Source: Vicinamibacterales bacterium
Lineage (GTDB): Bacteria; Acidobacteriota; Vicinamibacteria; Vicinamibacterales; SCN-69-37
Assembly (NCBI GenBank): GCA_035711465.1
Contig: DASTCC010000256.1
Location: 1-55,401 of the forward strand
Reading direction: 5' to 3'
Length of the DNA stretch: 55,401 nucleotides
In this document: piece by piece, positions 2,799 through 34,456 of the stretch
How positions within the stretch are numbered: the stretch's first letter is position 1
Layout of the letters: every line of letters begins with the position of its first letter
Translations under genes and position numbers: made by a program
Notes under the pieces: generated by a model
Databases searched by the model: none
Seen by the model: the letters and a program-made list of their open reading frames with translations, nothing else
What the model was told of the DNA's origin: nothing

Positions 2799-3986
2799 AT
2801 GTCAGTTTCGAGACGGGCATTCATGGCGGCGGGCATCGGCGCCGGAGCAGTCGGCGCCGGCTATTACCTCACGGGCGGCAGGATCCTCGGCCCGTGGACC
2901 CGCGACGCCGGCGAGAAGGTCGCCGGTGCAGCACCGACGCGGCGTCTGCTGCTGCACAACAACGAGAACCCCCTCGGGCCGGGTGACAAGGCGATCGCGG
3001 CGATGAGAGCGAAGTTCACCGAGCGGGGCATCCCGCTCGCGCGCTACGGCTTCAGGTCGGGCGAGGTCGCCGAACCGCTGGCGGCCAAGTTCAGCTGCAA
3101 GACCGAGAACGTCATGCTCGGCTGCGGCTCGACGCAGATCCTGCGCAGCGCGACCCACGCGTTCACGACGAAGGACGCGGCGCTGATCACCGGCACGCCG
3201 AGCTACGAAGAGTGCCCGGACATGGCCAAGGTCGTCGGCTCGAAGATGGTCACGGTGCCGCTCACCGGATCGGCGCATCTCGACCTCGACGCGATGGCCG
3301 CGGCCTCCGCCGGCGCCGGTCTCGTGTTCCTCTGCAATCCCAACAACCCGACCGCCACGGTGCACGGCGCCAAGACGGTGCAGGACTTCGTCGAGAAAGT
3401 GCTGAAGGCGTCGCCGAAGACCGTGATCGCCATCGACGAGGCGTATCACGACTACGTCACCGACCCGAGCTACGCGACGCAGATCCCGCTCGCGCTCGAG
3501 AACCCGCAGGTCATCGTCGCCCGCACCTTCTCGAAGGCCTACGGCATGGCCGGTCTGCGGCTCGGCTACGCCATCGGCAGGAAGGAGACGCTCGACAAGA
3601 TGCGCGCCGTCCAGTTCGGCATGACGCTGAACGTGCTCGCGCTTGCCGCCGCGGTCGCGTCGATCCCGGACACGGCGCGTCTCGAAGAGGAGAGCCGCCG
3701 CAACACCGAGGCGCGCCAGTTCACCATGGACTGGTTCAAGCGCTCGGGCTATTCGATGACCGATTCGCAGTGCAACTTCATCTTCGTGAACATCGGCCGT
3801 CCGGCGAAGGAATTCCGCGACGGCTGCCGCGAGCACGGCGTGCTCGTCGGCCGCGACTTCCCGCCGTTCGAGAAGACCCACACGCGCATCTCGATCGGCA
3901 CGATGGAAGAGATGAAGGAAGCCGTGCAGGTCTTCGGGCAGGTCCTCGCCGTGACCAACGCGGCGTCGACGGGCACCGCGGCCTGA
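2799..3986 (+). CDS. HisC-family class I/II PLP aminotransferase with canonical Tat-type signal (paralog of 1536..2753)
   Basis: ORF 395 aa. MSVSRRAFMAAGIGAGAVGAGYYL = SRRxF plus a hydrophobic h-region. Same conserved blocks (NENPLGP, LCNPNNPTAT, IDEAYHDYVTDPSYAT, TFSKAYGMAGLRLGY, HTRISIGTMEEM). Confidence 0.85.
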   Translation: MSVSRRAFMAAGIGAGAVGAGYYLTGGRILGPWTRDAGEKVAGAAPTRRLLLHNNENPLGPGDKAIAAMRAKFTERGIPLARYGFRSGEVAEPLAAKFSCKTENVMLGCGSTQILRSATHAFTTKDAALITGTPSYEECPDMAKVVGSKMVTVPLTGSAHLDLDAMAAASAGAGLVFLCNPNNPTATVHGAKTVQDFVEKVLKASPKTVIAIDEAYHDYVTDPSYATQIPLALENPQVIVARTFSKAYGMAGLRLGYAIGRKETLDKMRAVQFGMTLNVLALAAAVASIPDTARLEEESRRNTEARQFTMDWFKRSGYSMTDSQCNFIFVNIGRPAKEFRDGCREHGVLVGRDFPPFEKTHTRISIGTMEEMKEAVQVFGQVLAVTNAASTGTAA

Positions 3987-3993
3987 TGCCGGA

Positions 3994-5346
<1,353 letters not shown>

Positions 5347-7868: not shown

Positions 7869-7923
7869 GGGTCGGAGCAGGGTCGGAGCAGGGTCGGAGT
7901 AGGGTCGGAGCAGGGTCGGAGCG
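7869..7923 (+). repeat. Five tandem copies of 11-nt unit GGGTCGGAGCA
   Basis: Copies at 7869, 7880, 7891 (GGGTCGGAGTA), 7902 and 7913 (GGGTCGGAGCG). The array starts 7 nt after the TAG stop of gene 6660..7862. Confidence 0.9.
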
Positions 7924-7952
7924 GCACCAGACCAGGGTCAGACCGACATCAG

Positions 7953-7991
7953 AACGGGGTCAGCGCCGGGTTTACGGGCGCTGACCCCGTT
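7953..7991 (+). terminator. Hairpin terminator after the NHL gene pair
   Basis: AACGGGGTCAGCGCC (7953..7967), 9-nt loop, GGCGCTGACCCCGTT (7977..7991): perfect 15-bp stem. No long T tract. Confidence 0.55.
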
Positions 7992-14799: not shown

Positions 14800-16728
14800 G
14801 TGTCCGAAGATCGCGATCTCGGTCTCGGCGCGAAGATCACGCGCAAGGACTTTCTGAACGCCTCGCTGCTCGGCGTCGGTGGGCTGCTGATCGGCGCGCC
14901 GTCTCCGGCCGAATGGCTTGCGGACCGCGCCGGCGCCTTGGCTCGGCAACAGCCGGAGATCGACGCGTGGACGGGCTACGGCGGCGTCGGCGATTACGCC
15001 GCGTCGAACGGCAACACGCGTCCCGTGCTCGAGGCCGCCCATCGAGTCCGCGATGGCCGCTACTCGCCGCTTCCGAGCAACACCGTCGACACCGGCGAGC
15101 TCTACGACGTCGTCGTCATCGGCGGCGGCATCTCGGGGCTGACGGCGGCGTATCGAGTCGCCAAAGCGACGAATCGAGCGAAGACCTGTCTCGTCATCGA
15201 GAACCATCCGATGTTCGGCGGCGGGGCGAAGCGCAACGAGTTCAGCGTCAACGGCGTGAAGCTGGTCGGCCCGCAGGCGTCGAACCAGTTCGGCGTTCCG
15301 CGCGAAGGCACGACCTCGCTCGCCAACGAGATCTGGACCGACTTCGGATTGCCGCGCGCGTTCGCCTACCAGGACCTGGCGCCGGAGGCCGGTGATCTGA
15401 AGATTCCACTCGACAACTACGCGCACATGGACGGCGTCAACGAGACGCAGGTGGACGTCGGCTACTTCTTCGACGACAGGACCGGCGCGGCGAGGCCGAC
15501 CTGGCTGCGCAACATCTGGCGGAACGATCTCGCGGACACGCCCTTTCCGCCGGAGGTGAAACAGGATCTGCTGCGATGGCGCAGCACCAGCGGTGACGCG
15601 ACCGACGAGTTCCGCCGGAAGCTCGACACGATGACCTACGCCGAGTACCTCGAACGCGAGCTCAAACTGCGCCCCGAGGTGACGAAGTTCGTCGCGCCGA
15701 TCGTCGGGCTGATCAACGGCGCTGGACCGGACGGCGTGTCGGCGTTCGCGGCGGCGCAGATCGGCATGCCTGGCGTCGCGCGGGTGCGGTCGCGCACCGG
15801 GCCGCTGCCGCAGTCGTTTCCCGGCGGCAACACGACCTTCGCGCGCCACTTCGTGAAGTACCTGGTGCCCGAGGCCGTTGCGGGCTCGGCGAGCTTCGAA
15901 GACGTTCATCGCGGCCGCGTCGACGTGCGGCTGCTCGACCGCCGCGATCGGCCCGTCCGCATCCGGCTCGGCGCGACCGTCGTCCGCGTCCAGCACACGA
16001 GGACGGTGAACCACGGAGAGCATGTCGCCGTCGCCTACGAGCAGGCCGGGCGCGTGCACCTCGTCCACGCCCGCGCGGTCGTGCTCGCTTCGAACGGGAT
16101 GATGAATCGCGCGGTCGTGGCCGATCTGCCGGACGACATCGCGCGCGCCTACGGCGAGTTCATGCACGCGCCGGCGCTGGTCGTCAACGTGGCACTGAAC
16201 AACTGGCGCTTCCTGCACCGCCTCGGCGCGCCCTGCTGCCGGTGGTTCGACGACGAGTTTGGATTTTCGTGCAACATCCGCCGCGCGATGGTTGCCGGCG
16301 ACCCGCTGCCGCCGATGACGCCGGATCAGCCGATCGTGCTGACGTTCTACATGGGTCTGTACGCGCTCGGGCGTCCGCTCGCTGAACAGCTGTCGTCAGG
16401 CCGCGCGAGGCTCCTCCAGACGAGCTATGCCGACTACGAGCGTCTGATTCGCCGCCACATGACCCGTCTGTTCGCCGGCGCCGGCTTCGATGCCGCGCGC
16501 GACATCGCCGGCATCATCCTGAACCGCTGGGGTCACGCGCGCCTCGTGCAGCCGCCGGGGTTCTACTTCGGCCGCGACGGCAAGCCATCGGCGCGCGAGG
16601 TCGTCGCAAAGGGCTACGGCCGGGTTGCGATCGGACATTCGGAGCTGAACGGGCATCAGAGCGCGACTGGTGCGATGGCGCAGGGCCATCGGGTTGCCGA
16701 GCAAGTGCTCGCGCTACTGCCAGCTTAG
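14800..16728 (+). CDS. FAD/NAD(P)-binding amine-oxidase-like oxidoreductase (spermidine-dehydrogenase-like), Tat-like RK leader
   Basis: 642 aa, GTG start. AKITRKDFLNASLLGVGGLLIGAP resembles a Tat signal with RK in place of RR. YDVVVIGGGISGLTAAYRV Rossmann motif. Size and layout resemble SpdH-type flavoproteins (resemblance only). Confidence 0.7.
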   Translation: MSEDRDLGLGAKITRKDFLNASLLGVGGLLIGAPSPAEWLADRAGALARQQPEIDAWTGYGGVGDYAASNGNTRPVLEAAHRVRDGRYSPLPSNTVDTGELYDVVVIGGGISGLTAAYRVAKATNRAKTCLVIENHPMFGGGAKRNEFSVNGVKLVGPQASNQFGVPREGTTSLANEIWTDFGLPRAFAYQDLAPEAGDLKIPLDNYAHMDGVNETQVDVGYFFDDRTGAARPTWLRNIWRNDLADTPFPPEVKQDLLRWRSTSGDATDEFRRKLDTMTYAEYLERELKLRPEVTKFVAPIVGLINGAGPDGVSAFAAAQIGMPGVARVRSRTGPLPQSFPGGNTTFARHFVKYLVPEAVAGSASFEDVHRGRVDVRLLDRRDRPVRIRLGATVVRVQHTRTVNHGEHVAVAYEQAGRVHLVHARAVVLASNGMMNRAVVADLPDDIARAYGEFMHAPALVVNVALNNWRFLHRLGAPCCRWFDDEFGFSCNIRRAMVAGDPLPPMTPDQPIVLTFYMGLYALGRPLAEQLSSGRARLLQTSYADYERLIRRHMTRLFAGAGFDAARDIAGIILNRWGHARLVQPPGFYFGRDGKPSAREVVAKGYGRVAIGHSELNGHQSATGAMAQGHRVAEQVLALLPA

Positions 16729-16785
16729 AACTGAGAACTGAGAACTGAACTTAGAACTAGGGTTCTGGATTCTCAGTTCTCAGTT
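16729..16785. terminator. Bidirectional hairpin built from GAACTGA heptamer repeats
   Basis: AACTGAGAACTGAGAA (16729..16744) pairs perfectly with TTCTCAGTTCTCAGTT (16770..16785). Inner AGAAC/GTTCT pair also present. The left arm starts right after TAG 16726..16728, and the right arm contains the stop of the minus-strand remnant (16780). Confidence 0.6.
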
Positions 16786-20266: not shown

Positions 20267-20358
20267 TGTCGTCACCCGTGTCACCCGTCGTGACCCGTCG
20301 TAACCCGCCCGTCACCTGTCGTAACCCGTCGTCACCCGTCGTAACCCGTCGTTACCCG
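20267..20358 (-). repeat. About nine imperfect tandem copies of 10-nt unit GGGT[TGAC]ACGAC (minus-strand reading)
   Basis: Plus strand reads ...TGTCGTCACCCGTGTCACCCGTCGTGACCCGTCGTAACCCGCCCGTCACCTGTCGTAACCCGTCGTCACCCGTCGTAACCCGTCGTTACCCG. The last unit contains the TAA stop (20352..20354) of the YfcH-like gene. Confidence 0.85.
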
Positions 20359-26763: not shown

Positions 26764-26805
26764 ACTTGAAACTTAGAACTCAAGACTTGAAACTCAGAAC
26801 TCAGG
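26764..26805 (-). repeat. Two tandem 21-nt AT-rich units spanning the hisD stop
   Basis: Plus strand ACTTGAAACTTAGAACTCAAG (26764..26784) and ACTTGAAACTCAGAACTCAGG (26785..26805). On the sense strand each unit reads GAG TTC TGA/TAA in the hisD frame. Confidence 0.85.
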
Positions 26806-29236: not shown

Positions 29237-29271
29237 GTCCGTCCTTCGCCCGGACGGGATCGAGCAGGGTA

Positions 29272-29300
29272 CAAACGAAAACCCCGCCGATCCGGCGGGG
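29272..29300 (-). terminator. Intrinsic terminator of the his attenuator
   Basis: Minus strand CCCCGCCG-GAU-CGGCGGGG (29300..29282) followed directly by UUUUCGUUUG (29281..29272). Lies 36 nt upstream of the hisI ATG. Confidence 0.7.
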
Positions 29301-29333
29301 CTGCGAAAGTCGATCAGAGTTCGACGACGACGT

Positions 29334-29402
29334 TCAGGCGCAGCGCCACCGGGCGGTCGAATGACCGTGATGATGGTGGCGGTGGTGCGCGCGCGGGAAC
29401 AT
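29334..29402 (-). CDS. his operon leader peptide, 22 aa, 7 His codons
   Basis: Own translation of the minus strand: ATG TTC CCG CGC GCG CAC CAC CGC CAC CAT CAT CAC GGT CAT TCG ACC GCC CGG TGG CGC TGC GCC TGA = MFPRAHHRHHHHGHSTARWRCA. Too short for the ORF track. Confidence 0.7.
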   Translation of the reverse strand: MFPRAHHRHHHHGHSTARWRCA

Positions 29403-29412
29403 CAGGACAACG

Positions 29413-29442
29413 ACGTTACGCAACCACGTCGTCGAGTGTCAA
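29413..29442 (-). promoter_or_regulatory. Candidate his promoter
   Basis: Minus strand TTGACA (29442..29437), 18-nt spacer, TAACGT (29418..29413), 10 nt before the leader ATG. No SD, which implies a very short or absent 5' UTR. Confidence 0.4.
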
Positions 29443-29464
29443 GTCCGCGTATCGCGCCGACGAC

Positions 29465-32146
29465 TCACTCCGCAGCACGAAGCGCGTCTGTAGGGTGGAT
29501 CCGCAGCGCCCTGCGAATCGGTACCGTGCAGGCCACGGCGCTGACGATCATCACCATGATCGCGCTTGCGGCGATGAGACTGGCGAGCGACAGCGTGATG
29601 TGACCCTCGGAAAGCAGCGGCAGCATCGTGATGGCAGCGGCGCCAATCACGGCGCCGATCGCGACCCGCCGCATCGGTGTTCGCAGGATCTCCGACAGCA
29701 GCCGGCGCCGGTCCGCACCGAGCGCGACGCGGATGCCGATCTCCCGCGTGCGCCGCGAGACCGTGAACGACACGACGGCGTAGATGCCGGTCAGCGCCAG
29801 CAGCAGCAGCAAGCCGATGACCCCGAGAGAGAAGCGGAACCAGAACGCATAGAAGCGTGATTCGGTCCGGACGAGATCGCCAAGGGTCGAGAAGCCGGAG
29901 AGCCGCAGCGACGGATCGACGCGCGCGGCAATCGCGCGCACTCTGGCGGCGATCGTCCCGCTCCCTCCGGCCGCGTGCACGATCAGCCGGGCCGGCTGCG
30001 TCCCGGGCACGAGCGGCGTGTAGATGCCGGCGCGCTCGCGCAGACCGGGATCGGCGGTCATCGTCAGATCGGTGACGACGCCGACGATCTCTCGCCATGG
30101 CTCCGGCGCTTGTTCGTCAGACGTCGACGGCGTCGAGGCTTTGAATCGCAGTCGTCGCCCGATTGCCGGTGCGCCGCCCAGCACCTCGGCTACGAACGAC
30201 TGGTTGACGACGATGACTGTGGCGTCGGGGCGCGTCTCGGCCGGGTGAAAGTCGCGTCCCGCCACCATCTTCGCGCCGAGTACCTGAAAAAAGCCGGGAG
30301 ATACCGTTGCCACCTGCGGTCGATGCCCGAGCGCCAGACGCGACGGCTGCGTAGGGCCGTCGACTTCGATCCACCGTCGGGGAACGTAGGCGCCTGGCGG
30401 ATCGCCGAACGTCGCCGATCGAATGGCGCCATCGACGCGGAGCTCCTCGAGCAGCGTCGCGCTCGACGATTCGAACCGTCCGCGGTTGGCGGCCGTCGCG
30501 TCGTCGGGAGTCGATGCGCCCGCGGCTGTCGCGCCGTGCAGCGCGACAGCCGCGGCCACGTACTCGTCGCCAGCCGCGCCGAGATCGAAGCGCGAGAATC
30601 CCCAGGTCTCCCGGCCAACGGAGACGACGATCGGCACGCACGCGACGGTGAGCGCGACCTGAGCGACGATGACGCCGGTCCAGATGCCGCCGAAACGCAC
30701 GGTGGATACGCCCGGCGCGCCGATCTTCCAGCGCGCCGCCCCGCCCGTCACGCGGAACGCCGGCCATGCGCCGGCGACCAGTGCGACCAGGCCCGCCAGT
30801 CCAACCGCATAGACCGCGGTCCACGGCGACAAGCTCATGTGCATCCAGAACGGCCACCGCTCGATGCCGAGGCCGACCTCGACGAGACGAAAGACCCAAC
30901 GCATCCCAACGGAGGCCAGGCCCAGGCCCGCCGCGGCGCAGACCAGCGCCAGCAGCATCGTCTCGACGAACAGCTGACTGACGATGCGTCCGCGGCTGGC
31001 GCCGAGCGCGGTGCGCATCGCGAGCTCCGCCTCGCGGCTCACAGTCCGCGCGAACATCAGCAGCGCCACGTTCGATGCCACGAACACCAGGAACAGCACC
31101 GCGGCGACATTGGTCGAACCGAACGCCAGTCGCGCGACGACGGGCGCGTCGATCATCGCCCTCGCGTACGGCAGCACGGTCGGCACCACACGCGCATGGG
31201 TGTCGGGGAAGTCGCGTGCCGTCCGCGCGCCGAGCGCCGTAACCTCGGCCTGCGCGCTCGCCAGCGTCGCGCCAGAGGCCAGACGACCGAACACGAAACC
31301 TGACGGAGGCCCGCCACGCCGGCCCAGTTCGGACGCAGTGAATCGAAGCGGCACCCACGCGTCGTGCGCGACCGGAAACAGGAATCCCTCCGGCATCACG
31401 CCGACGATGGTCACCGGCCGCGCATCCAGGTACGCGGTGCGGCCGATCACGTCCACGGCGCCGCCGAAGCGCTGCTGCCAGACGTGGAAGCCGATCACCG
31501 CGACGTCCGGTCCGCCGACGACCTCGTCGGAGGCGACGAGCGTGCGTCCGATGCGCGCCGAAGCCTGCACCGTGGCGAATGCGGCGGCGCTCGTCTCCGC
31601 CACTTCGATCGGCTCGCTTTGCTGGTCGGCGGTGATCAGATTGCGCGTCTGCGATCGAAAGGCGCCAACGTGCTCGACCGATCGCAGCTGCGTCCGCCAC
31701 GTCTCCAGATCCCAGGCGGTGTGCGTCACGTTACGGCCGGTCTCGGTGTTCCAGAGCCGGAATCCGACGATCCGGTCGCCGCCGGCGATCGGCAGCGACG
31801 GCGACAGCACCTGTGAGACCACTTCGAACGTCAGCGCGCCAACGGCGATGGCGAATCCGAGCGCCAGGCTGGCAACGAGCGACAGGCCCGGATAACGAAG
31901 CATCAGCCGCATGCCGAGCCGAACGTCGAGCCACGACAGTTGCAGCCGAGGACGCGGCAAGCGCAAGCGCGCGAGCGCGAACGCCATGTCCAACCCCTCG
32001 ACCGTCGTCAGCCACCACGCAGCGAGGCGTCCCCGCTGCTGGACGCGGCGGCCGTGCGCCTCTTCGAGATCGCCGAGGACGTCGTGAACCCGGTCACGAG
32101 GCGCGAGCCCGCTGAGCAGGGCGGCAATCAGGCGAGGCGGCTTCAT
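29465..32146 (-). CDS. ADOP-family duplicated FtsX/MacB-type permease with N-terminal permease-prefix domain
   Basis: 893 aa. Two MacB_PCD+FtsX halves. C-terminal ...RRALRIHPTDALRAAE. N-terminal cytoplasmic prefix (DVLGDLEEAH). ATGA overlap with the padR stop. Confidence 0.9.
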   Translation of the reverse strand: MKPPRLIAALLSGLAPRDRVHDVLGDLEEAHGRRVQQRGRLAAWWLTTVEGLDMAFALARLRLPRPRLQLSWLDVRLGMRLMLRYPGLSLVASLALGFAIAVGALTFEVVSQVLSPSLPIAGGDRIVGFRLWNTETGRNVTHTAWDLETWRTQLRSVEHVGAFRSQTRNLITADQQSEPIEVAETSAAAFATVQASARIGRTLVASDEVVGGPDVAVIGFHVWQQRFGGAVDVIGRTAYLDARPVTIVGVMPEGFLFPVAHDAWVPLRFTASELGRRGGPPSGFVFGRLASGATLASAQAEVTALGARTARDFPDTHARVVPTVLPYARAMIDAPVVARLAFGSTNVAAVLFLVFVASNVALLMFARTVSREAELAMRTALGASRGRIVSQLFVETMLLALVCAAAGLGLASVGMRWVFRLVEVGLGIERWPFWMHMSLSPWTAVYAVGLAGLVALVAGAWPAFRVTGGAARWKIGAPGVSTVRFGGIWTGVIVAQVALTVACVPIVVSVGRETWGFSRFDLGAAGDEYVAAAVALHGATAAGASTPDDATAANRGRFESSSATLLEELRVDGAIRSATFGDPPGAYVPRRWIEVDGPTQPSRLALGHRPQVATVSPGFFQVLGAKMVAGRDFHPAETRPDATVIVVNQSFVAEVLGGAPAIGRRLRFKASTPSTSDEQAPEPWREIVGVVTDLTMTADPGLRERAGIYTPLVPGTQPARLIVHAAGGSGTIAARVRAIAARVDPSLRLSGFSTLGDLVRTESRFYAFWFRFSLGVIGLLLLLALTGIYAVVSFTVSRRTREIGIRVALGADRRRLLSEILRTPMRRVAIGAVIGAAAITMLPLLSEGHITLSLASLIAASAIMVMIVSAVACTVPIRRALRIHPTDALRAAE

Positions 32147-32490
32147 CTCGTGCCTCCGGTCAGGCCTTTCACGCGCCCCGCCATCGCCTGAATCGCGCGC
32201 GTCGTCGCCCGCACGGCCTCGACGCCGGCGGGTTCGACGACGACCAGCCGGCGCGGCCGCCCGCCCCGCTCCGGCCGCGCGTCGCCAAGCCGCGTCGAGA
32301 TCAGTTTCTTGCTCTCGAGACGCTGCAGCGTCGTAAACACGTTCGCCCGCCTGACGGAGCGCCCGGTGCGCTCGGCGATGTCGTCGGCAATCGAAACCGT
32401 GTAAGCCTCATCAGGCCCAAGATGAAGCGCCGCAAGCAACACCAGGAGCTCGAACTCGGCGAGCGACTCCGCCCGGGTCTTTTTAGTCAC
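32143..32490 (-). CDS. PadR-family transcriptional regulator (ADOP-associated type)
   Basis: 115 aa, GTG start. EFELLVLLAALHLGPDEAYTVSIADDIAERTGRSVRRANVFTTLQRLESKKLISTRLGD...GGRPRR = PadR winged helix. Confidence 0.9.
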   Translation of the reverse strand: MTKKTRAESLAEFELLVLLAALHLGPDEAYTVSIADDIAERTGRSVRRANVFTTLQRLESKKLISTRLGDARPERGGRPRRLVVVEPAGVEAVRATTRAIQAMAGRVKGLTGGTR

Positions 32491-32525
32491 GATGTGACTA
32501 TATTGACCCGCCGCCGCCCCGTCAA
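32484..32525 (-). promoter_or_regulatory. padR promoter (TTGACG-N17-TATAGT) plus 17-bp palindrome centred at the start codon
   Basis: Minus strand TTGACG (32525..32520), 17-nt spacer, TATAGT (32502..32497), 6 nt, GTG (32490). Palindrome TAGTCAC-GAT-GTGACTA (32484..32500) overlaps the -10 box and the start codon. Confidence 0.5.
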
Positions 32526-32621
32526 CCGTCGTTACCCGGGTACCCGCGTCACCCGTCGTAACCCGCCGTCACCCGCGGTTACCAGCCGTAACCCGTCGTT
32601 ACCTGTCGTAACCCGTCGTTA
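32519..32621 (-). repeat. About ten imperfect tandem copies of 10-nt unit GGGT[TGA]ACGAC (second array)
   Basis: Plus strand ...CGTCAACCGTCGTTACCCGGGTACCCGCGTCACCCGTCGTAACCCGCCGTCACCCGCGGTTACCAGCCGTAACCCGTCGTTACCTGTCGTAACCCGTCGTTA. The last unit contains the ggt TAA stop (32619..32621). The first unit contributes the padR -35 box. Confidence 0.85.
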
Positions 32622-34340
32622 CCTGCCACCAGGTTTGGCAGCTTTAGACGTCGGATCCCTGGGATCCGCGACACCGAACGCGGTGCCCGTGATCGGATGC
32701 ATCCAGATCGTCTGCGCGGATCCCTGGCTGCCCTGGGCGCGCGCGTCGTGGCCGAGCGCCTTCAGCGCCGCCAGCACTTCGTCGGAGACGCCGTTGGTCT
32801 CGATCGTCAGTCGATCCGGCAGCCACTGATGGTGCATGCGCGGCGCGTCCACCGCTTCGCGGCCGGTCCGTTCCCAGGCGGTGACGTACAGCACGACGGT
32901 GAGCACGGTGTTGATGATCGTCCGTCCGCCGGGCGAACCGGTGATCAGGACCGGCTTGCCGTTGCGCGCGACGATGGTCGGCGTCATCGAGCTCAGCATG
33001 CGCTTGCCGGGCGCGATCACGTTCGGCGGCGTGCCGATGTCGCCGGTCTCATTGGTCGTGCCCGGCTTCTTGTTGAAGTCGCCCATCTCGTTGTTGAGCA
33101 GGATGCCGGTGCCGGCGACGACGACGTGCGAGCCGTAGCCCCCTTCGAGCGTGTAGGTGTTGGCCACCGCCATGCCGTCCTTGTCGATGACCGAGAAATG
33201 CGTCGTCTCGTCGGACTCGGCCGGCAGCGCCGCCGAAAGGATGTCGTTGCCGAGCACGCGGCTGAGCGACGCGCGTTTCATGTCGATCGAGCGCGCCACG
33301 TCCCGGGCGTGCGCCTTCGACGTCAGCTTCTCGATCGGCACCTGCACGAAATCGGGATCGCCGAGGAACCGCGCGCGGTCGAGATAGGCGCGGCGCATCG
33401 CTTCGGTGGTGAGGTGCAGCGCTTCGACCGAGCCAGGCTTCCGCTTCTGGATGTTCTGTGACTCGAGGATGTTGAGCATCTCGATCAGCGCGACGCCGCC
33501 CGAGCTCGGCGGCGGCATCGAGATGATCTCGTAGCCGTTGAACGTGCCCTTGACCGGCGCGCGTTCCTTCGCCTCGTAGGCGGCCAGATCGTCCTTGGTG
33601 ATCAAGCCGCCGTTGGCGGCCATGTCGGCCGCGATGCGATCGGCGATCCATCCTGTGTAGAACGCGTCGGGGCCGTCGTTGGCGATCGAGGTCAGGCTCT
33701 TCGCGAGATCGGCGAGGACGATGCGATCGCCGGCTGCCCACTGTCCGCCGCCCGGCTTGCCGTAAGCGGCCACCGACGCGGGAAACGGCTGCATCCGCCG
33801 CAGCTCGTTGTTGAGACTTCGCGCCAGGGTCTCCGACATCGTGAAGCCGTTCGCCGCGAGCTGCGCGGCCGGCAGGACGATGTCTTTCCATGGCAGCTTG
33901 CCGAGCTTCGAATGCGCGAGCGCCATGCCGCGCACGGTGCCCGGCACTCCGGGCGCGAGATAGCCGGCGGCCGTGAGGCTGCGATCGATCTCGCCGTCCT
34001 TGCCGAGGTACATCGTCGGCGTCGCCTTGCCCGGCGCGCGCTCGCGATAGTCGAATGTCGTCGCCGTGCCGTCGGGCCGGCGGACGATCATGAAGCCGCC
34101 GCCGCCGAGGTTGCCGGCGGTCGGGTGAGTGACGGCCATCGCGAACGCGGTGGCGACCGCGGCGTCGACGGCGTTCCCGCCTTTGGCGAGGACGTCGGCG
34201 CCGAGATCCGCGGCGACATCCGACGCCGATACGACGAGTCCGTCGCGCGAGCTGACGCCAAGGTCGGCAGGAACGAGCTGAGTGATCGCGCCGGCCGGCG
34301 CGATCGCCAGAAATGCGAGCAATAACGCGAGAACTCTCAT
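32619..34340 (-). CDS. ggt: Gamma-glutamyltransferase
   Basis: Start ATG 34340 (MRVLALLLAFLAIAPAGA signal). GGNAVDAAVA, NLGGGGFM, autoprocessing site ESDETTHFSVIDKDGMAV, GSPGGRTIINTV. Confidence 0.9.
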   Translation of the reverse strand: MRVLALLLAFLAIAPAGAITQLVPADLGVSSRDGLVVSASDVAADLGADVLAKGGNAVDAAVATAFAMAVTHPTAGNLGGGGFMIVRRPDGTATTFDYRERAPGKATPTMYLGKDGEIDRSLTAAGYLAPGVPGTVRGMALAHSKLGKLPWKDIVLPAAQLAANGFTMSETLARSLNNELRRMQPFPASVAAYGKPGGGQWAAGDRIVLADLAKSLTSIANDGPDAFYTGWIADRIAADMAANGGLITKDDLAAYEAKERAPVKGTFNGYEIISMPPPSSGGVALIEMLNILESQNIQKRKPGSVEALHLTTEAMRRAYLDRARFLGDPDFVQVPIEKLTSKAHARDVARSIDMKRASLSRVLGNDILSAALPAESDETTHFSVIDKDGMAVANTYTLEGGYGSHVVVAGTGILLNNEMGDFNKKPGTTNETGDIGTPPNVIAPGKRMLSSMTPTIVARNGKPVLITGSPGGRTIINTVLTVVLYVTAWERTGREAVDAPRMHHQWLPDRLTIETNGVSDEVLAALKALGHDARAQGSQGSAQTIWMHPITGTAFGVADPRDPTSKAAKPGGR

Positions 34341-34456
34341 CGCGGTCACCCCAGGTGTGCCGGGAAGCTTAGCACTCGTCGCGCCCGGCCGGTGCGTCGG
34401 TTCGGACACACGCTCTGCTACCATTTGCCCATTCGGTCCTACCCCTGGAGGTTTCC

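Follow-up and report, generated by a model that had tools for sequence, protein, structure and literature searches.

The ggt-padR spacer and its tandem array

In the window, that is, the whole stretch of 55,401 nt analysed here, the genes for a gamma-glutamyltranspeptidase (ggt), a PadR regulator and an ADOP-type permease follow one another on the minus strand. Between ggt and padR, at 32528-32624, lies a tandem array of about ten decamer units of GGGTNACGAC, the minus strand being the transcribed (sense) strand. The features concerned are listed below, each with its basis.

29465-32146, minus strand: ADOP-type MacB_PCD/FtsX permease gene, with a 4-nt overlap with padR (Pfam)
32143-32490, minus strand: padR, 115 aa (Pfam PF03551)
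32484-32500, no strand assigned: palindrome TAGTCAC-GAT-GTGACTA (TAGTCACGATGTGACTA) at the padR start (kept in orthologues, in L005 with one mismatch)
32497-32525, minus strand: padR promoter-like site TTGACG-N17-TATAGT (sequence scan; hexamers and spacing as in the orthologue L005)
32528-32624, minus strand: decamer array, probably a gene-less solo copy (Tandem Repeats Finder, pattern count against shuffles, unit parse, identity in four independent assemblies)
32543-32574, minus (sense) strand: G-quadruplex motif G3N7G3N7G3N6G3 (unit parse; a G4-aware fold predicts no folding)
32619-32621, minus strand: TAA stop of ggt in the first array unit, AGG TAA CGAC (frame and unit parse)
32619-34424, minus strand: ggt (Pfam PF01019, G_glu_transpept, E 2e-162; homologue search)
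20268-20357, minus strand: sister decamer array, from the stop of a DUF1731/epimerase gene to an amidohydrolase gene (Tandem Repeats Finder, pattern count)

Tandem Repeats Finder reports the spacer array with a period of 10 nt and 10.5 copies (32526-32627), and adds a period-20 row with a score of 104, so that a super-period of 20 exists besides the decamer one. Read on the sense strand from 32624, the units are AGGTAACGAC, GGGTTACGAC, AGGTAACGAC, GGGTTACGGC and TGGTAACCGC, followed by GGGTGACGGC, GGGTTACGAC, GGGTGACGC, GGGTACCC and GGGTAACGAC (to 32528); two shortened units, of 9 nt and 8 nt, are found close to the 3′ end. None of 100 shuffles reached the 12 matches to GGGTNACGRC that the 55-kb window contains (1.4 expected), and all 12 are on the minus strand and within the arrays (20268-20357 and 32528-32614). 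Both approaches bear out a previous interpretation made from the sequence only (the sequence-only reading), according to which the 10-nt array is real and repeats the element of the first array, both being oriented alike with respect to transcription. The gene identities that it proposed for ggt, padR and the MacB_PCD/FtsX permease were likewise upheld by Pfam.

The decamer unit has a palindromic GTNAC core, and its four-unit form can be written (GGGTGACGAC)4. Due to the TNA within GTNAC and to the 10-nt period, stop codons are present in all three sense frames inside the array. The ggt frame ends ...GGC AGG TAA, with the stop at 32621-32619, within the first unit as had been read. The stretch G3N7G3N7G3N6G3 is also where it had been seen, on the sense strand at 32574-32543, and is overlapped by a second G-quadruplex motif at 32535-32564 on the same strand. 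An ORF of the plus strand, 32422-32829, crosses the array; its codon-position GC (0.62/0.61/0.72 versus about 0.65/0.5/0.88 in real genes) led us to reject it as coding.

The longest ggt ORF encodes 601 aa, the database gene call being 573 aa. We considered that the array could have truncated or extended ggt and discarded this idea: Pfam finds the whole domain, up to residue 590 of 601, and relatives share the G-R-stop end. Relatives terminate in ...GGC AGG TAG, the position of the stop being native. The nearest ggt relatives (77-79% identity) have no array after ggt; no relatives closer than these homologues, at most 79% identical, were found in the collections searched. In L065 and L066, a histidine leader and hisI lie directly 3′ of ggt. 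The padR-ADOP pair is therefore an insertion in the lineage of the window, and the array spans exactly the junction between the native ggt stop and the promoter of the padR-ADOP module.

Regulator, terminator and quadruplex readings of the array

The palindrome TAGTCACGATGTGACTA at the padR start codon was found at 32484-32500 as the sequence-only reading had it, and it is a probable PadR operator. The same reading went further: it speculated that the array could be a string of low-affinity half-sites for this regulator, and had its last unit provide the -35 box of padR. We compared four PadR orthologues (L005-L008, 70-83% identity) from MAGs labelled Vicinamibacterales, Acidobacteriota, Gemmatimonadota and Longimicrobiales. 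L006-L008 carry the operator palindrome at the matching place as AGTCAC-N3-GTGACT (core GTCAC-N3-GTGAC), and L005 carries a one-mismatch variant, AGTCAC-AAA-ATGACT (GTCACAAAATGAC). The L005 promoter is literally TTGACG-N17-TATAGT, with related forms in L006-L008. The array is absent from the 500 nt upstream of padR in all four, where each has 0-3 isolated GGTNAC cores. As the orthologues keep the promoter without any array, the -35 box belongs to the padR module; the supposed last unit, GGTTGACGGGG, is not a unit, and the same hexamer stands at the same spacing in the array-free L005. A more general role of array 3′ ends as -35 suppliers was also dismissed, being seen at two padR loci alone and contradicted by the orthologues at the window locus.

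Half-sites that load or titrate PadR would fit the resemblance of the GTNAC cores to the operator arms, and a second padR, on C559, likewise has a decamer array directly upstream; 2 of the 36 PadR-like genes of the genome are in this situation versus about 0.35 expected, a weak excess. On the other hand, operator and promoter are retained in orthologous modules devoid of the array, 34 of the 36 padR paralogues are array-free and 28 of the 30 decamer arrays of the genome have no padR nearby. The GTCAC/GTGAC core attributed to the units holds for two of them with GTGAC, but the other eight or so have GTAAC or GTTAC. Moreover, the units are direct repeats, and a GTCAC...GTGAC pair formed from adjacent units would have a 5-nt spacer versus 3 nt in the operator. 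We therefore give hardly any credence to a PadR half-site array.

Termination or processing had been suggested as well. If the array were a terminator or an RNase site keeping the transcripts of ggt and padR-ADOP apart, its position directly after a stop codon would fit, and inverted array pairs elsewhere in the genome could form long hairpins. However, the ggt-padR copy is a single arm. No terminator-like site was found on the sense (minus) strand of the spacer, the 150-nt sense RNA folds no better than its shuffles (z-score -0.86) and the Rfam 15 covariance models gave no match at E <= 1 over 32000-33000. These results speak against the suggestion, and such a role appears highly improbable. 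G-rich RNA is in addition a poor Rho loading site. On C30, a classical terminator sits between two arrays, and for this reason the arrays do not replace terminators. Because no terminator precedes padR, the array is probably co-transcribed passively as a 3′ trailer of ggt.

A quadruplex formed in the non-template strand or in the ggt 3′ UTR could slow RNA polymerase or protect the transcript end and so insulate ggt from padR. The canonical motif is present on the sense strand of the ggt-padR array, 21 of the 30 arrays of the genome have the G-rich strand as their sense strand, and related heptamer repeats form G4 in vitro (PMC4692102). Against this, the canonical motif, with four consecutive G3 tracts, occurs in 11 of the 30 decamer arrays only; few unit positions are less conserved than the first G of the tract (0.59 bits), which 35% of the units lack. 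The 7-nt loops are at the upper limit of the motif rule, and arrays have 4-18 units with no preference for four. In the G4-aware ViennaRNA fold, the array contains no quadruplex and the isolated motif favours a hairpin. A G-quadruplex element at this place is thus improbable.

A dispersed family: geometry, polarity and distribution

Judging by the names of its homologues, the genome of the window (5.28 Mb in 606 contigs, 69% G+C, assembly 83% complete) is that of a soil member of the Vicinamibacterales. It contains 30 decamer arrays with four units or more, spread over 22 contigs and almost all located in spacers. The unit dimer has 47 matches in it versus none for a reversed control. Other short-period families, of 7, 8, 9, 11 and 13 nt, coexist with the decamers, and the genome has 292 arrays in all with a period of 6-13 and four or more copies. 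A rough gene set based on GC3 served to place the arrays. Of 28 decamer arrays, 25 have their nearer ORF on the 5′ side of the G-rich strand; the median distance to an ORF is 2 nt at this end and 98 nt at the 3′ end. Twenty-one of the 30 arrays adjoin a stop codon read in the sense direction, and at both arrays of the window this stop is inside the first unit. The split between co-directional, convergent and divergent spacers did not differ from background (21 spacers).

About half of the decamer arrays form inverted pairs, always with the G-rich strands outward, and the others are single arms. Over all families of the genome, inverted neighbours of the same family (39 cases) outnumber direct ones (8), the G-rich arm coming first in 33 of the 39 inverted pairs. 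The possibility that these pairs are exact mirror duplications was rejected, as the strings of unit variants differ between the two arms.

The two arrays of the window had been taken as independent occurrences in an identical genic context, and hence as an argument for function. The context is non-random (25/28 arrays abut an ORF and 21/30 a stop). Nevertheless, since they are 2 of the 30 copies of a dispersed family, they are not independent inventions and do not constitute independent evidence for a local function.

The arrays also have an internal polarity. From 5′ to 3′ on the G strand, defects per unit increase from 0.71 in the first quartile to 1.48 in the last, ORF-proximal units being nearer to consensus. 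A or T occupies position 5 in 41% of the units of the first third versus 13% of those of the last third (within-array permutation, p < 1e-4), and the trend is repeated in 18 arrays of the MAGs CAZJTG01 and CAVVUL01 (p = 0.001). In the ggt-padR array, the position-5 string is A-T-A-T-A-G-T-G. First units of A type can be explained because they provide the TAA stop, but the rest of the pattern is not explained in this way. Polarity beyond the first units suggests that units undergo polar renewal at the outer end or are copied from a structured master.

The amplified family was found in three acidobacterial genomes only, that of the window and the two MAGs just mentioned, whose genes are about 70-80% identical to its own at the DNA level; of 401 genomes that were sampled across the order (147 genera), 399 lack the unit dimer. 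Across GTDB species representatives, the unit triple is present in 37 stretches, of which 17 belong to CAZJTG01 and CAVVUL01. A recurrence across phyla (Actinomycetota, Burkholderiales and others) was considered and abandoned, as the reversed control is nearly as common: the triple occurs in about 22 genomes and the reversed pattern in 18. The single short arrays of about 20 other genomes from many phyla are on this account background.

At orthologous sites, arrays come and go. The cdd-mtnA-like spacer measures 30 nt in C286 versus two decamer arrays and a gene in CAVVUL01 (L017), and the array pair of C30 is missing at the orthologous site of CAZJTG01 (L032), these presence/absence contrasts being seen at about 75% nucleotide identity. 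Decamer arrays are confined to this lineage, and orthologous sites gain or lose them. The padR locus, array included, is found in four further assemblies, whose sequences match the window at 100% identity over up to 3.9 kb and so are uninformative on variability: no copy-number variants were found among them. Flank patterns had no match in two metagenome scans, and a look-up of the amidohydrolase beside the first array gave no record.

We consider it likely that the ggt-padR array is a gene-less solo copy of this lineage-specific, dispersed short-tandem-repeat family and not a device specific to ggt or padR. Replication slippage or unequal exchange would generate the arrays and drive their turnover, the latter biased to the ORF-proximal end. 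At this locus, the padR-ADOP module would have been inserted with its own promoter; promoter and operator belong to the inserted module, and the array would be a filler of the junction after the ggt stop. It would supply three-frame stop codons, and the G-quadruplex motif and GTNAC cores would be by-products of the unit sequence. However, simple slippage accounts neither for the tight abutment to ORFs nor for the internal polarity.

PF05635 cassettes and comparison with known repeat systems

Some inverted pairs have a long loop and enclose PF05635 genes (23S_rRNA_IVP, Avd-like four-helix bundle). The arms of these cassettes are listed by contig.

C417: decamer arms
C499: 8-mer arms
C403 and C550: GGGCTGC arms
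C430: GGAATCGG arms

The decamer-armed gene of C417 is at 4095-4442. Such a gene is present in 3/3 genomes with the amplified family, G000 (C417), G406 (L077) and G407 (L090/L017), the loci listed being L084, L077 and L090, and its proteins share one clade with those armed by a 9-mer (GGGTACGAC). Of 29 PF05635 genes in four genomes, 25 are enclosed by inverted arms whose scores exceed the 99th percentile of those of 400 control genes (Mann-Whitney p = 1e-18 for the arm scores against control genes). The ggt-padR array shares its unit and its outward polarity with the arms of the C417 cassette. The locus has neither a partner arm nor a PF05635 gene, all decamer matches of the window being on one strand. 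As decamer arms flank a PF05635 gene in all three genomes of the family, the array is best read as a solo arm without gene.

By analogy with REP/REPIN sequences and their RAYT, the PF05635 protein of C417 could recognise, generate or mobilise the decamer arrays, that of ggt being a satellite solo arm, a possibility which we regard as unlikely. Several observations favour it. The decamer-armed genes of the three genomes encode proteins of a single clade. In 27 cassettes from 4 genomes, the sharing of arm words increases with protein identity (Mantel r 0.34, p < 2e-4). Cassettes with the same arms are at non-syntenic sites, with one exception, the pair L074/L080, in which the arms differ. In L017, the whole cassette is an insert of about 800 bp relative to C286, from a stop codon to the next start codon. 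The outward G-strand 5′ ends of cassettes would also account for the ORF-abutment rule. Other observations run counter to it. We know of no transposase or polymerase activity of four-helix-bundle proteins. No PF05635 cassette of the most abundant families of the genome (the GCTGGGT heptamer and the 11-mers) is present in the assembly, which is 83% complete. In G019, one cassette has 9-mer arms but gene-less 9-mer arrays are nearly absent; G000 is rich in 9-mer arrays, yet in it the positional orthologue L080 has non-repetitive arms. Finally, the correlation could stem from common descent or from the adoption of arms out of the local repeat pool. In a broader version, to which we also grant a rather low probability, the short-tandem-repeat families of this lineage would be arms and shed solo arms of foldback cassettes and not products of slippage arising independently, with a PF05635 cargo that recognises its own arm unit, and the C417 gene would be the partner of all 30 arrays including that of ggt-padR. 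Units added or renewed in a polar manner at the outer end, which faces the ORF, might then produce both the ORF-abutment rule and the 5′-to-3′ gradient of variants.

Among known elements, REP, BIME and REPIN sequences with their RAYT proteins provide a working analogy, with a gene-bearing master copy flanked by its own repeat. Like them, the decamers are a dispersed intergenic family, often as inverted pairs near gene 3′ ends, but REP, BIME and REPIN are imperfect palindromes of 20-40 nt whereas the units here are tandem decamers. A direct RAYT link was set aside, since the three Y1_Tnp genes are on C473, C597 and C221, all contigs without decamer arrays. A second parallel is the short tandemly repeated repetitive (STRR) heptamers of heterocystous cyanobacteria, reportedly described by Mazel et al. 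in 1990. In both cases, several unrelated short-unit families coexist in intergenic spacers (here of 7, 8, 9, 10, 11 and 13 nt), although the decamer family differs in units, unit length and phylum, the comparison being made via the literature term. To our knowledge, intergenic short tandem repeats such as STRR and the heptamers of Xanthomonas and Nostoc have been without explanation since 1990.

The decamer family makes the origin of such repeats experimentally approachable. It offers three handles on it: the ORF rule with its median of 2 nt, a reproducible polarity and a same-armed PF05635 gene in every genome of the family. For annotation, arrays beside regulators should not be taken as operator strings or G4 switches without a genome-wide check.

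The closest parallel in geometry is that of the G-rich heptamers of Xanthomonas (GGGAATC) and Nostoc (GGGGAYT), whose function is unknown (Rehm et al. 2015, PMC4692102). There, the ORF located 5′ of the G-rich strand is the closer neighbour in either orientation, stop-codon overlap included. The decamers resemble them as dispersed tandem arrays, mainly non-coding and with inverted pairs, that follow the same near-ORF rule with stop overlap (25/28, medians of 2 and 98 nt); neither family is linked to a gene class. The heptamers also vary widely between related genomes (PMC4692102), and for the decamers presence/absence contrasts were seen at about 75% nucleotide identity. The positional rule is thus already published for G-rich repeats, and the decamer family differs in unit length and quadruplex competence. 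Its unit is of 10 nt and not 7, with a palindromic GTNAC core and in the phylum Acidobacteriota. Its G4 competence is marginal (11/30 arrays, 7-nt loops), four units not being preferred. For the heptamers, no 5′-to-3′ trend among unit variants is reported (PMC4692102).

The intervening sequences (IVS) of the 23S rRNA genes of Coxiella and Leptospira carry an S23p/PF05635 ORF between terminal inverted repeats that are cut by RNase III (Warrier et al. 2016, PMC4990558). PF05635 genes of the lineage studied here are similarly enclosed by inverted arms; one cassette is decamer-armed, and it is present or absent as a block. The arms are tandem arrays, in contrast to the unique 28-bp stem of the 23S IVS (PMC4990558), and the ggt-padR array, without partner arm or PF05635 gene, lies between protein genes and not in rRNA. 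The TAACTGA direct repeats of Beggiatoaceae, cyanobacteria and Bacteroidetes, for which a control of translation has been proposed (MacGregor 2015, PMC4679880), share with the decamers an intergenic position beside ORF boundaries and stop codons borne by the unit. They are mostly just upstream of start codons, whereas the decamer arrays mostly come after stop codons.

Gene order and control region at the ggt-padR junction

Among ggt relatives, the closest ones (79% identity; loci L065, at 4240-4546, and L066) have a His-codon leader and hisI immediately after ggt. In the window, a padR-ADOP pair (padR with a MacB_PCD/FtsX permease gene) stands between ggt and the His-codon leader (29237-32624). 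Since this pair separates two elements that are contiguous in the closest relatives, it is a lineage-specific insertion, and the decamer array lies at the upstream junction. Downstream of ggt in other relatives lie different genes (DUF4097; DUF1731 epimerase).

PadR orthologue loci L005-L008 keep, around 2950-3000, the promoter and operator block of window 32484-32525: a promoter resembling TTGACG/A-N17-TATAGT, and AGTCAC-N3-GTGACT overlapping the start. The MAGs behind these orthologues carry the labels of four distinct orders or phyla, and conservation of the block across them hints that the padR-ADOP module moves horizontally and takes its control region along. The true padR start codon of L005 is apparently located about 25 nt further downstream, so the leaderless reading of padR may not be general.

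Within the window's own genome, a second padR paralogue is immediately preceded by a decamer array (contig C559, 5984-6100). It displays GTGACG-N17-TATTGG followed 5 nt on by ATG, an arrangement similar to that of the padR promoter in the window. Altogether, decamer arrays are found at 2 of the 36 padR genes of this genome (about 0.35 expected).

Polarity of decamer arrays and contents of inverted pairs

Among the 30 decamer arrays of this genome, units near the ORF are less degenerate than distal ones, and A/T at the variable base (position 5) is commoner in ORF-proximal units. This polarity is significant and was replicated in two related MAGs (18 arrays, L011-L046).

Inverted pairs of decamer arrays enclose the following:

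C316 2450-3519: arrays in both adjoining spacers flank a CPBP-family intramembrane protease gene (minus strand, about 300 aa)
C30 2327-2584: the 80-nt loop between two arrays contains an intrinsic terminator of the classical kind, GGCGCGCTCCCC-ATTC-GGGGGGCGCGCC then a T run

About 0.14 adjacent pairs bracketing one gene would be expected by chance, and the C316 example indicates that an ordinary gene is able to occupy the ‘loop’ of an arm pair. The position of the C30 terminator argues that decamer arrays accompany terminators and do not replace them.

Sister repeat families and PF05635 cassettes

A sister 9-mer family, (G/A)GGTACGAC, corresponds to the decamer without its variable base and is likewise amplified, with 42 dimer matches in the window's genome (C43, C96, C157, C246, C286, C487) and 50 in CAVVUL01 (G407), spread over many contigs. 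It is almost missing in G019 and CAZJTG01. Short tandem arrays of non-decamer families also occur at window 7869-7963, 16724-16785 and 26764-26803 (11-mer GGGTCGGAGCA, 4.9 copies; AGAACTG/TTCTCAG heptamers; 21-mer ACTTGAAACTCAGAACTCAAG, 1.9 copies), and probably belong to the same general phenomenon.

In four acidobacterial genomes, inverted short-tandem-repeat arms enclose 25 of 29 genes for PF05635 (23S rRNA IVS protein, Avd-like). Each paralogue has its individual arm unit (6-16 nt), related units being found with related proteins. Cassettes in the window's genome include:

C417 3831-4699
C499 3171-4099
C403 17654-18370
C430 5864-6557
C550 306-756

The comparison covered loci L070-L099. Among these, L080 (C533 13350-14150) and L074 (G407) are positional orthologues of one cassette, the left-flank protein being 77% identical. 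Their arms are very unlike: one genome has clean arrays of the 9-mer, the other an imperfect inverted repeat that is not repetitive. Cassette arms can thus be remodelled in place.
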